NCBI RefSeq assembly: GCF_006345805.1
Contig: NC_043005.1
Span: 79,794,001 to 79,858,000, forward strand
Direction of reading: 5' to 3'
Origin: Octopus sinensis
Lineage: Eukaryota
DNA length: 64,000 nt
Both the position numbers and the translations under genes were made by a program. Under the pieces are notes generated by a model. That model was not told the DNA's origin, ran no database searches, and saw only the letters and a list, made by a program, of their open reading frames with translations. Every line of letters starts with the position of its first letter. Within the stretch, counting starts at the first letter, position 1. Below are positions 5,365-57,345 of this stretch, piece by piece.

Positions 5365-5548
5365 TCATGGAAAAACAAAAGTCGAAGACAGGCGTATGAA
5401 CAACAAGCAAGTGTTTTAGTTTGACGCTCGGGAGAAAATGGAAATGTCTTTTACGTTTCGAGATTACGCTCTTCAGCAGAAAGGAATAAGAGAAAATAAA
5501 GAGAGAGCGAGAATGAAAAAAATCTTGGAGATTTTAGCGGTCTAGCAT
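5365..5548 (-). mobile_element. Penelope-like terminal-repeat remnant, family A, with degenerate hammerhead motif (5446-5484)
   Basis: Homologous to 12950-13075 and 13955-14170; minus strand CCUUU-CUGcUGA-A-GAG(cguaau)CUC-GAAAC-GUA-AAAG. Confidence 0.55.
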
Positions 5549-5919
5549 TTATATATATATATATATTCTTGCAGGCAAACAATAGACTTACTAATTTCAT
5601 TATGGATAGGAATCGAAACAATTATATGTAATTTCTATTTGATATTTATTATATTATATTATATTATTATAAGAATATGATATAATATAATATTACGTTA
5701 ACAAATTTAATTTTTGAATTGACAATTGTACTTCTCCATTTTCTTTTCAATTATATATATATATACATATACATATATATATATTATATATATATATATA
5801 TATATATATATATATATATATATATTATATATATATATAATATATATATATAATAAAAATAACATATGCATATATAGATACATATATGTACGTACCTACC
5901 TCTACATGTATATATGCAT

Positions 5920-6630
5920 GCATATATGGGTACAGAACACAAAAAAACGTCGAACACAATGAGAAACGAAAACATATACACAAAAACAAGGAAATGGACA
6001 TTTCTTTTAAACAACGAATAAATAGAGTACAGGACATGCAAAACAAGGAAAATTCCCCTTCTTCAGTCGCCTTAGTTTCATCTACTCCACGTTTCGAAGG
6101 TCAAGGCGATACATGACTTCAATAAAACTTTCCTTCCCGCAAAAATCAAATTAAATAGAATTTGAGATTTTTTGTGGAGGGGTAAAAATGGTAAAAAAAA
6201 CAGGACAGTAACGACAGTACAAAATATAAACAGTGAAAGACAGGACACGGAGAATATCACAAACAAGAAGAGCTGTTAAGCCAAACGAGATAAAAAATTT
6301 TTACGAACGCTATTTTTTGAGAACGGCAGAGAGCAACAGATTTTACCGTCTCTACTTGAAGAAAGCCAGGAGAAGAAAGACAGTGGGACCCATCTCATCA
6401 CGTGACGCGACGGGAGGGAGGAGGAGGGTAAGAGAAAGGGAGAGAAAAAAGGGAATGGTTGTAGAGAAAAGAATGAAGAATGAGAGAGAGAGGGAGAGAC
6501 AGTAAGGTAGAAGAAAAGGAAAGCCAAAAAGAATGAAGGCTGAGAAAGAGAGGGGGAGAGAAAGGTTAAGAGTGCGCATCATTATTAATATTAAGAACAA
6601 TCTTTCTTAGAAATGGATGCGTGCTTTCCG
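5920..6630 (-). mobile_element. Penelope-like / unclassified non-coding repeat, family B
   Basis: Homologous to 14355-14860 (same strand) and 18386-18625 (opposite strand); bounded by (TA)n-rich tracts. Confidence 0.5.
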
Positions 6631-7324
6631 TCATATAATAAATATATATATATATATATTATTTGAGAGTTGCAGTTCGTTTAATCAACTTCGCTTAACG
6701 GTGCTTAGAAAACAAAATGTAGAAAAGCAATCTTGACCTCGACAGGATTTGAACGTAAACCCTCCGAATAAATGCACAATTGCTTTCTGAAGGTTTTTGA
6801 ATGCCAGCAGTTTGTAGGCAAGGTATATAGTCAAAATTATCAATGCCTGTACATGTCAGGCTTAAATTTTTACTCTTGCAAGTTTTTAAAATATGGCCAC
6901 CACAGAGTGATTACTAACAAAAGGCTAGTCAAAGCGTGGAGAGACATGACCAGTGAACATCAGTACCGACGGCTACATACAGCAGCGCTAGGAACATATA
7001 AGCTCTCCACTTTTGTCCAGTAGGCCAACAGCTCATGAAACTGGGCTAACTACAGCTCCGTCTATGCTTCAGGCCGTGAGAAAATTTTAAAGAAAAATTT
7101 ATTGTTTTTACGTAACATGTAAAGTTATATCCGGTGTTTGAAGATACGGGAATAATTGTTTTTATGTAAAGTACCGATTAAATTTCTTGTATAGTGAAGG
7201 AAATATCTTTATAAGCAAGATAAAAAATATGTGTATACAGACAAATAAATACACACACATACGTACATATATTCATCCAGTCATACGTGCGCATGTGTGT
7301 ATATGTGTGTATGCGAGCGTGCTT

Positions 7325-7580
7325 GAAGGCACGTGGTCTATTCTTTCTTGGTTTCAATTCAAAGACCGGTGGTGCGTTGTCTTCCTGAGCAAACACTTCG
7401 TTTCACTTTGCTCAGCTGTAAATAGGTAGATCTAGGACGCAGTGGTGTTTCGTTCAGGGGGAGTAGTCGCCTGCATTTCTAGCCACCAGGATAGCATCAT
7501 TCGAAGGCTTTGACCATGCGTTTCCTCGCATTATGACCATGTAACAAGCGATGTATAATAACATCCGATACTCTGGTCGA
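7325..7580 (+). mobile_element. Degenerate tRNA-derived SINE (family 3-related) with RTE-type tail
   Basis: GGTTTCAATTC box-B-like motif and TTGTCTTCCTGAGCAAACACTT; tail similar to the reverse complement of 17115-17238. Confidence 0.5.
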
Positions 7581-7809
7581 TAAAGTGATACATATGCATT
7601 TAAGTAAATAATTAAATAATTATATATATATATAAATAAATATATATATATATATACATATATATATATATATATATATATATATATTATATATATATTA
7701 TATATATATATATATAAATATATATATATATATATATATATAATATATATATATATATATATATATATATATATATATATATATATATATATATACATAC
7801 ATGTATGTG

Positions 7810-54084: not shown

Positions 54085-54680
54085 TTAATGATAATAATAA
54101 TAATAATAATGATAATAATAATAATAATAATAATAATGATAATAATAATAATAATAATAATAATGATGATGATGATAATGATGATGATGATAATAATAGT
54201 ATTAATAATAATAATATTGAGAAGAATAAGAACAAAAACCAGAACAATCACAGTTGTGAACAATAACAATAAGAAAACAATAATAATAGCAACAACATGA
54301 ACAATAATAATAATAATAATAATAATAATAATAATAATAATAATAATAATAGTAATAATAATAGTAATAATAATAATAATAATACTAATAATAATAATAA
54401 TAATAATAATAATAATAATAATAATAATAATAAGAGTAATAATAATAGTAATAATAATAATAACAATAGTACTAATAACAATAATAATAATAATAATAAT
54501 AATAATGATAATAATAATAATGATAATAATAAAGGTAATAATAATAATGATAATAGTAATAATAATAATAACAACAATAATAATAATAATAATAATATTA
54601 AAATAATAATATATAATATAATAATAATATAATAATAATAATAATAATAATAATAATAATAATAATAATAATAATAATAT
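54085..54680. repeat. Long imperfect (AAT)n microsatellite
   Basis: Direct inspection. Confidence 0.95.
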
Positions 54681-55759
54681 AGGTGGCAATTGTATAATAT
54701 TGATGTCATAACAAGTCTTCTTTGAAGTTAGTCGAACAAGGAGGAAGTGCAGTTTATGGAAATACCGTAAAATATGGTGATCGTAATGGCGGCAACAGAG
54801 GGAAAGGAAGAGGTAATTGGAGTTGTAGTGGAAAGGAAATGGCGGTTATTTTTATATCCGGTATTTTTCAGCGATGCGTAGGGTTCTAAGTTTAATATGA
54901 TTGTTTATATGAATGAATTTGAGAATATGTGTATGTACGTATGAATGTATGCACATATATATATATATATATATATATATATATATTAATATATGTATGT
55001 GTGTGTGTGTGTGTGTTTGTCTGTGTGTGTATGTATGTATGTATGTGTGTATATATATACATATAATATAGATAGATAGATATACAATGTACTGTATATA
55101 CGTATATATATATATATATTATATATATATATATATATATATTATGTATATATATATATATAATATAATATACATATACACACATACGTATGTGTAGATG
55201 TATACATAGATGTACACATATATAGGTATGTAAATGTACAAGCATACATATATATTTGCATATATATTTTTTATTTATATTAATGTGTATATATATATAT
55301 ATATATATATATAATAAATAAAAATACATAAACACACACGCGTACACACATATATATGGTGTTGTTCGTGGACCCACGAAAGACAGATATAGATATATGT
55401 ATTTACATACATAAATGTATATGAATATATACTATATATTATATATATATTATAATATATATATGAATATATTTAACACACACACTATGTGTACATATGT
55501 GTGTGTATGTGTGCGTATGCGGGTACGTGTTATGTATGTGCATGTACGACGTAGGTGGTGTTGGCGTTGTTGAAGTCATTGTTTACCAAATTTCCAAATG
55601 AAAATTATTCTCGACCAGACTTTTGCCTTTGCTGTTCCAACAGAGAGATAATATAAAAGGACAAACGTAGCTGTTGTGAGAAGTTAATGATTTGTAGTTG
55701 GTGTTTGAGTGATATCAGTCCGGAAACAGGGAAATTAGCTGAACGCCATACGATCGGGA

Positions 55760-56545
55760 AAACCGACAGGAGGAGAATGAGGGAAGAAATGAAGGAAGAA
55801 GAAACAAACAAACAAACAAACAAAAGAAAGGAAAGAAAAATAAACGGAGAGCAAGAAAGGAAGGAAGAAATGAATCAAGGAAGAAAAATAGAAAGAAGCA
55901 AAGAAAGAAAGTAGGAAGGAAAGAAAGAAAGAAAGAAAGAAAGAAGAAAGACTGAATGAAAAAGAAAACAGAGAGCAAGACAGGAAAGAAGGAATGAGGG
56001 AAGAAAAAAGAAAGAACGATGAAAGAAAGAAATAGAAGAAAAGGGGGAAGGATGAAAAAGAGAAAGAAAGAAAATGAAGAAACGGAGATCAAGAAAGGGA
56101 GGAAGGAAGTAAAAGAAGAAAAGAACGGATGACAGAAAGGAAGAAAGAATGAAATAGAAGGAAAGAAGGAAGGAAGAAAGCAAATGAAAAAATAACGGAG
56201 AAGGAAGGAAGGAAAAAGAAAGAAAGAAGGAAAGAAAATGGAAACGGAAAAGAAAGAAAGAAAAGGGAAGAAAGTTAAGAAGGATAAAAGGCGAAGTAGA
56301 AAGATGAACGACAAGATGAACGACGCAAACATGCTGATAATGATCATGATGATCAGTGTGATCATGGTGACGACGACGACGGTGAATATGCTGATAACCA
56401 TGATGAGGTTAAAGAAGAAGAAGAAGAAGAAGAGGAAGAAGAAGTAGCAAAGAAGAAGAAGAAGAAGAAGAAGAAGAAGAAGAAGAAGAAGAAGAAGAAG
56501 AAGAAGAAGAAGAAGAAGAAGAAGAAGAAGACGACGACGACGACT
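55760..56545. repeat. Purine-rich low-complexity tract ending in (GAA)n
   Basis: Direct inspection. Confidence 0.9.
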
Positions 56546-56919
56546 GCAGACAATATCTGTATGTACAGCAAAACTGACCCGAACAATTCCAAGATTTTAA
56601 CAGAAACAGCAAAATTTCTTTGATCTCCAAATATGTGACAACACACACAAACACACACACACAGACACATACACACACACACACACACACAAACAAACAA
56701 ACAAACAAAACAGTTTAATCATGCGAATTGAAACAGAAAGAAAACAGAATTTTTTTTATATTGAACGGCATTCTTCTGCGACATCATTGGATATTTAAAC
56801 TGCACCATTTTCATTGAATGGCATATCACTTCACAACATGAGTTCGTCAGTGATTGCTTGTGGTAGCTAATAGTGTAATCGCGTAAAACCGAATATGTCA
56901 CATCATACAGCCAAACACA

Positions 56920-57345
56920 TTAAGTTGACAGTATAAAACTACTCTATTGTCCCACCAGTGTTTATATCTCACTGAGATATTTAGAAATGTTATATTTCTA
57001 TTTTTGTGATCAGTGGATATATTTCGCTAGGATTCTTATATGTTTACGAGGCCTAGACAAGCATCTGCAGCTAAGCAGGCCATGCTACTTCAGACTGATG
57101 ACGAGAAAGACTCAGAAACTAGTCTCTAGATGCAGGCTTAGCTGTGTGAGGGCGCTTCTCCCCCCCCCTGTAAACATAAGGACACAGGAAATGTGTCAAG
57201 GCCGACAGGAAGCGTTGATGCTTCATAGGGCTAAATAACGGTGTTGTGATTTCCTTCATGGGACCGTCACCTTAAGTTGACACTATACAACTACTCTATC
57301 GTACAACCACTACTTATATCTCTCTGAGATATTTAGAAATGTAAT
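56920..57345 (+). mobile_element. Family G: ~75-bp diverged direct repeats (352-bp period) flanking a hammerhead
   Basis: TTAAGTTGACA..ACTACTCTAT..TGAGATATTTAGAAATGT at 56920 and 57272. Confidence 0.65.
57091..57128 (+). ncRNA. Minimal type I hammerhead (1-bp stem III, palindromic CUAG loop), degenerate
   Basis: AGA-CUGAUGA-cGAG(aaaga)CUCa-GAAA(CUAG)U-C|UCU; GUC triplet; C-A mismatch closing stem II. Confidence 0.6.

Follow-up and report, generated by a model that had tools for sequence, protein, structure and literature searches.

Which elements left the many short hammerhead-bearing repeats found in one stretch of an octopus genome, and do these repeats form a single system? The stretch (the window hereafter) comprises 64,000 nucleotides (nt) of Octopus sinensis (assembly GCF_006345805.1, contig NC_043005.1, positions 79,794,001 to 79,858,000, forward strand). 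An original prediction, made from its letters alone, had described families A, C, D, E, F and G and a single copy at 26283 as a non-autonomous, retrozyme-type set mobilised by proteins of Penelope-like elements (PLEs). We found at least eight hammerhead-bearing families in the window, whose origin is most likely PLE 3' ends (pseudo-long terminal repeats, pseudo-LTRs) and non-coding derivatives of them, and these families are not one class. The new candidate beyond the published system is a split-core hammerhead of S-G-C order, predicted in a further family (B) and in the PLEs called Naiads. Taken together, we put the probability at about 0.78 that PLE 3' ends and their derivatives have been copied by PLE proteins into TA-rich DNA, with family B predicted to be rewired.

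When the window was searched with a type I descriptor (CUGANGA, stem II of at least 3 bp, GAAA, a self-pairing helix III and UH), nine sites with an intact core were found (Table 1), against a mean of 0.13 and a maximum of 2 in 300 block-wise dinucleotide shuffles. Requiring a stem I of at least 3 bp left seven sites against 0.04 expected by shuffling, the stem being too short at 50263 (1 bp) and 13061 (2 bp). A stricter, earlier descriptor gave four sites against 0.2 expected and, with one core mismatch allowed, seven against 2.2 (40 shuffles); this one-mismatch class is weak on its own because the shuffles reached six. Nine of the 12 whole folds originally claimed thus have an intact core and three carry one core substitution (at 5479, 14077 and 49990), while the half hammerhead at about 16000 and all the stem III sequences named were found as described. 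Rfam gave no match in the window at the gathering score and, at E ≤ 10, no hammerhead family in the D/E, F and G regions; an e-value scan of the window gave 359 matches, and among the 150 listed nearly all were microRNA models on TA repeats. Simple repeats make up 22 % of the window (13,954 of 64,000 bases masked), and chance matches in such AT-rich, repeat-rich DNA might account for the one-mismatch count and for the failure of Rfam to find a hammerhead. However, the intact-core counts lie above every shuffle and family B shows compensatory changes. The window motifs are real: chance is refuted for the intact-core sites, and as a general explanation it deserves almost no weight.

Family B, which went unnoticed in the original prediction, has four related copies that carry CUGANGA with no GAAA downstream. 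A first reading of it as a type II hammerhead was dropped. A scan of all six strand orders placed the motif of element B6 in the S-G-C order; with its 18 bp, no other motif in the window is as well paired. In full, the predicted order reads 5'-P4a, P5 hairpin, IIa, P6a, IIIb, cut, Ib, IIb, GAA, IIIa, P6b, Ia, CUGANGA, P4b-3'. Stems I and II are separated by a linker of 1-2 nt and joined by a helix of 5-8 bp (P6). In the second candidate, B18p, stem II has one mismatch and P4a and P5 are gone through truncation. The two copies align without gaps and 12 of 13 core positions are identical, only N7 differing. Of the 28 positions in stems I and III only 14 agree, and still all 14 pairs are kept (simulated P 5e-5 to 2e-3). 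Over both copies 47 of 48 cells are paired, with six double changes, all in stems I and III. With a descriptor of the fuller fold, B6 and B18p were the only two sites found; 1,000 shuffles averaged 0.027 and never reached two. We consider it very probable that this fold is under selection and rather probable that it cuts RNA.

The partner strand of stem II in family B most likely lies upstream of the core, and because of this the link between A9 and G10.1 would be opened by two extra helices; in the proposed geometry P4 and P5 would stack and bridge the two bases. The A9/G10.1 junction is where PLE minimal hammerheads bear a bulged base (PMC4209133). Type-SGC hammerheads are already known and validated (Eckert et al. 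2023, PMC10085705); they stem from metatranscriptomes, none from the genome of a known organism, and share with family B the S-G-C order, the short linker between stems I and II, the helix joining them and the intact core. There, CUGANGA is assumed to be contiguous with stem II, whereas family B and the Naiads have the stem II strand on the 5' side and two extra helices at A9-G10.1. An unbroken block C, with CUGANGA contiguous with its stem II strand, was not found in family B, where weak downstream pairing is possible. Its layout is thus predicted to lie outside the six published hammerhead permutations.

The same arrangement was looked for in the 54 Naiad consensi of File S5 of Craig et al. 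(PMC8557442), which were searched for four core spellings. The places inspected were 60 of 62 for CTGATGA, 30 of 43 for CTGAAGA, 15 of 23 for CTGACGA and 15 of 25 for CTGAGGA; the Naiad file was covered in this way except for CTGACGA within its parts 20-28 and for matches that a line end splits. By eye, the B-type arrangement was seen near the 3' end of 10 of the 54 consensi, in seven lineages and five phyla: Bfor (ctenophore), 3_Chem, the near-identical Amil, Aacu and Anas, 2_Movir, Plae, EuTe, and Obim with Ovul. In the other 44 consensi it was not seen in the places inspected. The helix sequences vary by eye between lineages while pairing is kept, with 4-6 bp in stem II, 5-12 in stem III, 5-16 in P6 and, outside Bfor, 4-6 in stem I. 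In Bfor, stem I has only 2 bp and no P4 partner was seen, and in Obim and Ovul P4 is weak. The cut base is A or C in all examples read. Six lineages (Beroe, Clytia, Acropora, Morbakka, Pomphorhynchus and Eulimnadia) have, by eye, no G in the two bases after the core, and therefore stem II can form only with the upstream strand.

Naiad termini resemble family B in the six-helix arrangement near the 3' end, the T-rich 3' stretch and the (TA)n targets. Sequence similarity to Naiad_Obim and Naiad_Ovul was not seen by eye, and the Naiad hallmark (N-terminal GIY-YIG, CxC and C-terminal reverse transcriptase, RT) was not found at family B, the sole coding sequence nearby being a remnant beside copy B14 that is of the C-terminal-endonuclease type, as its relatives have a C-terminal GIY-YIG. 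According to Craig et al. (2021, PMC8557442), canonical hammerheads are absent from Naiads, some of which are labelled there as 'HHR_core' or 'HHR_half_core'. We lean slightly towards the view that family B and many Naiads carry an active hammerhead of a seventh layout, S-G-C with the core opened between A9 and G10.1 by two stacked helices. Three further observations were made on these termini. A YGAA-like stretch, possibly a tertiary contact, lies immediately 5' of or at the start of IIIb in four lineages (B6, B18p, Naiad_Obim, _Ovul, -2_Movir and _EuTe). In parts 13-16 of File S5 several Naiad termini (nematode families where the header is visible) carry a hammerhead resembling type I whose stem II is branched and very long. 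The bivalve Naiad termini shown are without the B-type fold and have another conserved motif in common.

Two other readings of family B have to be weighed. It could be a plain type-SGC hammerhead in which the G-run after CUGANGA serves as stem II, the pairing further upstream being either a switch or an alternative without activity: a downstream stem II is possible (4 bp in B6, 2 bp in B18p), a 6-bp downstream interaction helix has one double and two single changes, and the octopus Naiads have GG one base past the core. In B6, however, the downstream duplexes are unstable (0.0 and +0.7 kcal/mol) compared with the upstream stem II, P6 and P4 (-4.6, -4.1 and -7.4 kcal/mol), and the six Naiad lineages with no G after the core nevertheless have an upstream partner of 4-6 bp, so this reading appears improbable. 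A somewhat stronger competitor, though one we still doubt, is a hammerhead-derived structure that does not cleave, for example a binding or positioning element for a PLE protein. No tested precedent for an opened A9-G10.1 link was found in the literature covered, PLE ribozymes are slow or protein-dependent in cleavage, and Naiads proliferate without canonical hammerheads (PMC8557442). Against it, the catalytic-core bases and the UH cut site are all kept, the B copies differ only at the free N7, and no Naiad example read departs from A or C at the cut. We retain the split-core S-G-C hammerhead as the preferred model. Several points weigh against this model, and they are given here together. The family B descriptor was composed after the motif had been seen; covariation comes from two copies only, with no double change in stem II or P6; the downstream alternative helix pairs in both copies; and the nested minimum free energy of B6 is unremarkable (z -1.57). 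Known alignments show no insertion of more than 1-2 nt beside CUGANGA (Eckert et al., PMC10085705).

Among the type I families, D, E and G are tandem. Only E carries two whole motifs in tandem, D and G having 1.3 and 1.2 units with one motif each. The cut-to-cut monomers of E (476 nt, GC 0.33) and D (503 nt, GC 0.37) fold far better than shuffles (z -6.64 and -5.73; 0 of 100 shuffles as stable in either case), and in both folds the 5' end pairs with the stem I strand near the 3' end. The direct copy in D begins at the cut-site equivalent (18068/18069, a one-base ambiguity) and the E array begins 6-13 nt beyond it. Two of the three more-than-unit arrays thus have their start no further than 13 nt from a cut-site equivalent; for uniform starts and a 15-nt window, which was chosen post hoc, P is about 0.0035. 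The open reading frames (ORFs) of D and E gave no Pfam match. Like non-LTR retrozymes, D and E are head-to-tail, low in GC (<45 %), non-coding, strongly self-paired and equipped with a type I hammerhead; at 476-503 nt, their units exceed the circles of 170-400 nt described in 2020 (PMC7229834) and fall into the 51-972 bp range of a 2026 preprint. From sequence, D and E behave like non-LTR retrozymes.

Family E is an abundant, dispersed family. Its words were found in 20 sequencing runs among the matches listed (11 studies, 4 organism codes), seven of which had half or more of them. Four of these runs were analysed at the level of contigs, and two large ones gave 3,695 and 1,161 contigs. Head-to-tail joints were present in 13 and 8 of these contigs, in which a joint between tandem DNA copies looks just like that of a circle. 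Family E contigs also occur at low depth, with one joint, in two runs merely guessed to be RNA, from which neither expression nor circles follow; RNA runs carrying E were absent among the runs listed. When metagenome contigs were scanned for motifs of E and of A, no match was obtained.

The remaining named families have another anatomy. Copies of A and the 26283 element are single, not tandem or head-to-head as first described, whereas C and F are head-to-head pairs; an inverted arrangement is also seen in B18 and in part of D. The predicted cut lies about 85-220 nt from the element 3' end across families (the F value being off by about 4 nt). Fifteen of 26 element ends have a (TA)n tract no more than 12 nt away, compared with 4.2 % of window positions, the ends being set by eye and partly at microsatellite edges. 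Families A and F share with PLE minimal hammerheads the bulged base before G10.1 and an ACGU helix III, and C, D, E, G and 26283 share with Hydra-clade PLEs a long palindromic helix III and (TA)n targets. By sequence, A, C, F and 26283 look like PLE 3' ends. The head-to-tail retrozyme layout with a hammerhead in each unit is seen in E and lacking in A, C, F and 26283. The retrozyme-type label suits D and E, which have the sequence-level features; A, C, F and 26283 are solitary or inverted pieces of 3' ends and match truncated pseudo-LTRs no less than they match non-autonomous elements. In family A, frames are open at 5342-5476 and 13952-14074 (-) in phase with the core AUG (peptides 48 % identical), and the ORF of an anole PLE likewise starts inside its ribozyme. 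In family F, a tRNA-like head (about 50110-50185, minus strand, A-/B-box-like by eye) and (AAT)n precede the minimal hammerhead, and F is possibly a PLE passenger driven by RNA polymerase III and similar to a short interspersed nuclear element (SINE). ARAGORN detected no tRNA in this head, and a literature search on hammerhead, SINE, tRNA and octopus found nothing relevant among the matches listed.

The GIY-YIG remnant placed at 15500-15720 in the original prediction is real and larger, consisting of two halves inverted relative to each other. When 1.84 billion representative proteins were searched with it, 51 matches were obtained; of 12 relatives scanned, four have RT together with a GIY-YIG at the C terminus, five GIY-YIG only and three no family. 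By sequence the remnant is a PLE of the C-terminal-endonuclease type. A word-based protein search with the endonuclease piece gave nothing, and viral contigs held no PLE relatives. The remnant abuts family B and none of the families named in the original prediction: B14 lies downstream of the N-half and is oriented like it, but the roughly 470 nt that separate the two are unrelated sequence, and no homology bridges them. The broken frame in this interval (about 14870-15340, minus strand; no Pfam match) we take to be mariner transposase N-terminal-like.

These features can be assembled into one mechanism. A read-through or pseudo-LTR transcript would be cut by its ribozyme, and the D or E monomer, its ends held by stem I, may then ligate to a circle. 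A PLE RT/GIY-YIG protein would nick AT-rich DNA and reverse transcription would start about 85-220 nt downstream of the cut; short runs would leave solo or inverted 3' fragments (A, C, F, 26283 and B), and longer runs over multimers or circles would leave more-than-unit arrays ending where the template was cut (D and E). In an anole PLE the cut lies 26 nt into the ORF and reverse transcription starts at 111-118 nt, about 85-92 nt past the cut (calculated from PMC11167929), which the cut-to-3'-end distances in the window resemble, and inverted 5'-truncated partners with a one-sided tail are part of described PLE anatomy (Craig et al., PMC8557442). The claim of a PLE-mobilised set has support from anatomy (inverted 5'-truncated partners, one-sided tail, (TA)n ends and cut-to-3'-end distance), and not by a protein joined to the named families.

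Alternatively, all families could be 5'-truncated pseudo-LTRs of autonomous PLEs, the tandems being local duplications or satellites that never pass through a circular RNA stage of their own. Truncated copies account for most PLE motifs in genomes, which are solo or form opposite-strand pairs (PMC4209133), satellite-like local amplification of the pseudo-LTR is allowed by Li et al. (bioRxiv 10.64898/2026.07.22.740005), and A, C, F, B and 26283 fit this explanation fully. It accounts less well for D and E, whose whole units are folded much more stably than their shuffles and have the two ends brought together by stem I, whose arrays start at or near cut-site equivalents and, in the case of E, whose head-to-tail joints recur in other runs; we judge it unlikely as an account of all families. 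The mechanism proposed above, in which D and E pass through multimers or circles, also faces contrary points. The 5' end of the G array is 144 nt beyond the cut-site equivalent, hence not at the cut site, and none of 19 common variants of E in the two large runs falls in its 48-nt hammerhead, which is not significant (P 0.13). Insertion by the anole PLE in vitro did not need cleavage and no RNA-seq reads end at the cut (PMC11167929), and only one of nine Xenopus retrozyme dimers cleaved in vitro (Li et al., as above). Within the window no family named in the original prediction is joined to an RT/GIY-YIG ORF, the family A peptide had no relative in protein searches, and the open frames from the CUGAUGA AUG in A and B are weak evidence as the strands are T-rich.

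Table 1 Features of the window (positions count from its first letter; + and - denote the strand)
Feature	Positions	Strand	Description
Family B, element B6	5925-6636	-	PLE-like 3' region between TA-rich tracts
B6 hammerhead candidate	6055-6182	-	Complete split-core permuted motif, predicted fold
B6, 5' strands		-	P4a 6182-6178, P5 hairpin 6177-6137, IIa 6136-6132, P6a 6128-6121, IIIb 6116-6111
B6, middle strands		-	Predicted cut after 6110; Ib 6109-6102, IIb 6100-6096, GAA 6095, IIIa 6092-6087
B6, 3' strands		-	P6b 6082-6075, Ia 6074-6067, CUGAAGA 6066-6060, P4b 6059-6055
Family B, copy B14	14342-14850	-	CUGAUGA kept at 14476; deletions remove the S block and most stems; homology to B6 in the 3' region
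Family B, head-to-head pair (B18)	18217-18620	both	Minus copy (core 18348) without S block; plus copy 5'-truncated
B18p candidate	18407-18488	+	IIa 18407, predicted cut after 18433, GAA 18448, CUGAUGA 18477
Family D	17417-18150	-	503-nt unit, exact 150-nt repeat and inverted piece; core 17630, predicted cut after 17566
Family E	18788-19867	-	2.27 head-to-tail 476-nt units; hammerheads 18924-18971, 19400-19447
Family G	56916-57345	+	352-nt unit and 75-nt repeat; core 57095, predicted cut after 57124
Family A copy	5362-5548	-	Minimal hammerhead 5448-5483 with a bulged A; A6 substituted in the core (CUGCUGA); ACGU as helix III
Family A copy	12946-13183	-	Intact core at 13061, stem I 2 bp
Family A copy	13957-14173	-	Degenerate core CUGUAGA; (TA)n at both ends
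Family C fragment	15919-16148	+	Inverted tail, then hammerhead 3' half and 3' end
Family C inverted pair	43842-44372	both	Cores 44022 (-), 44102 (+); tail 44281-44372 at one end only
Family F inverted pair	49868-50330	both	Cores UUGAAGA 49990 (-), CUGAAGA 50263 (+); stem I broken in both
26283 hammerhead	26282-26342	-	Single type I; helix III ACUC-G-GAGU, as in Hydra-clade PLE ribozymes
Intact-core type I sites	13061, 17630, 18964, 19440, 26337, 44022	-	Descriptor
Intact-core type I sites	44102, 50263, 57095	+	Descriptor
PLE GIY-YIG endonuclease, N-half	15341-15559	-	With Cys linker; relatives are proteins with RT and C-terminal GIY-YIG
Endonuclease of the same kind, C-half	15531-15735	+	Inverted relative to N-half
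Interspersed repeat group 1	1753-1910, 20651-21089, 34096-34474, 42389-42776, 51504-51661, 62064-62186		Probably SINE
Interspersed repeat group 2	11328-11987, 30548-30692, 41081-41260, 45385-45622, 52252-52460, 53256-53502, 63026-63454		Probably SINE
DDE_1 transposase fragment	8813-9343	-	Pfam E 6e-16
RVT_1 fragments and a DUF4371 fragment	3395-3769 (+), 47594-47776 (-)	both	RVT_1 E 1e-4 and 7e-3

Other repeats were also observed in the window, including two abundant interspersed groups without intact hammerhead cores and fragments of DDE_1, DUF4371 and RVT_1 proteins. The RT fragments at 3395-3769 are presumably like those of long interspersed nuclear elements rather than PLEs.

Much of this system has published counterparts. 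Many minimal-hammerhead families per genome are known from PLE termini (Cervera & de la Pena 2014, PMC4209133), mollusc non-LTR retrozymes have been described (Cervera & de la Pena 2020, PMC7229834), and retrozymes have been presented as PLE derivatives (Li, Clavereau & Pollet 2026, bioRxiv 10.64898/2026.07.22.740005). The window families resemble the PLE pseudo-LTR hammerheads (PMC4209133, PMC8557442) in the type I core, several families per genome and opposite-strand pairs, and differ from pseudo-LTRs with ORFs in that they are known here without an ORF link. An octopus PLE hammerhead is known as well (Hydra-1_oBim of Octopus bimaculoides, PMC8557442 File S2); its motif is absent from the window. 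For O. vulgaris, 30 recently active Penelope families have been reported in a paper whose main text does not mention ribozymes. For a permuted or split-core hammerhead in PLEs, no report was found in the literature covered, which excludes subscription journals, Dfam and Repbase. The B-like pattern had no match in prokaryote genomes; one match in a viral contig lacked the S block and was judged to be chance.

The multi-family PLE hammerhead and retrozyme system, as first read, is a new instance of published biology. If the arrays of D and E do start at the predicted cut, they would be a genomic footprint of in vivo cleavage, which bears on what PLE and retrozyme hammerheads do in retrotransposition. 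The split-core layout of family B and the Naiads would escape standard descriptors and Rfam although it lies in abundant animal retrotransposons, and, if true, it would explain why Naiads were scored as having no hammerheads or only 'half cores'. Animal genomes would then have yielded their first ribozyme of this kind, spread over at least five phyla. Both the claim of hammerhead-free Naiads and the conclusion drawn from it, namely that the ribozyme might be no more than a parasite of PLEs, would be overturned.

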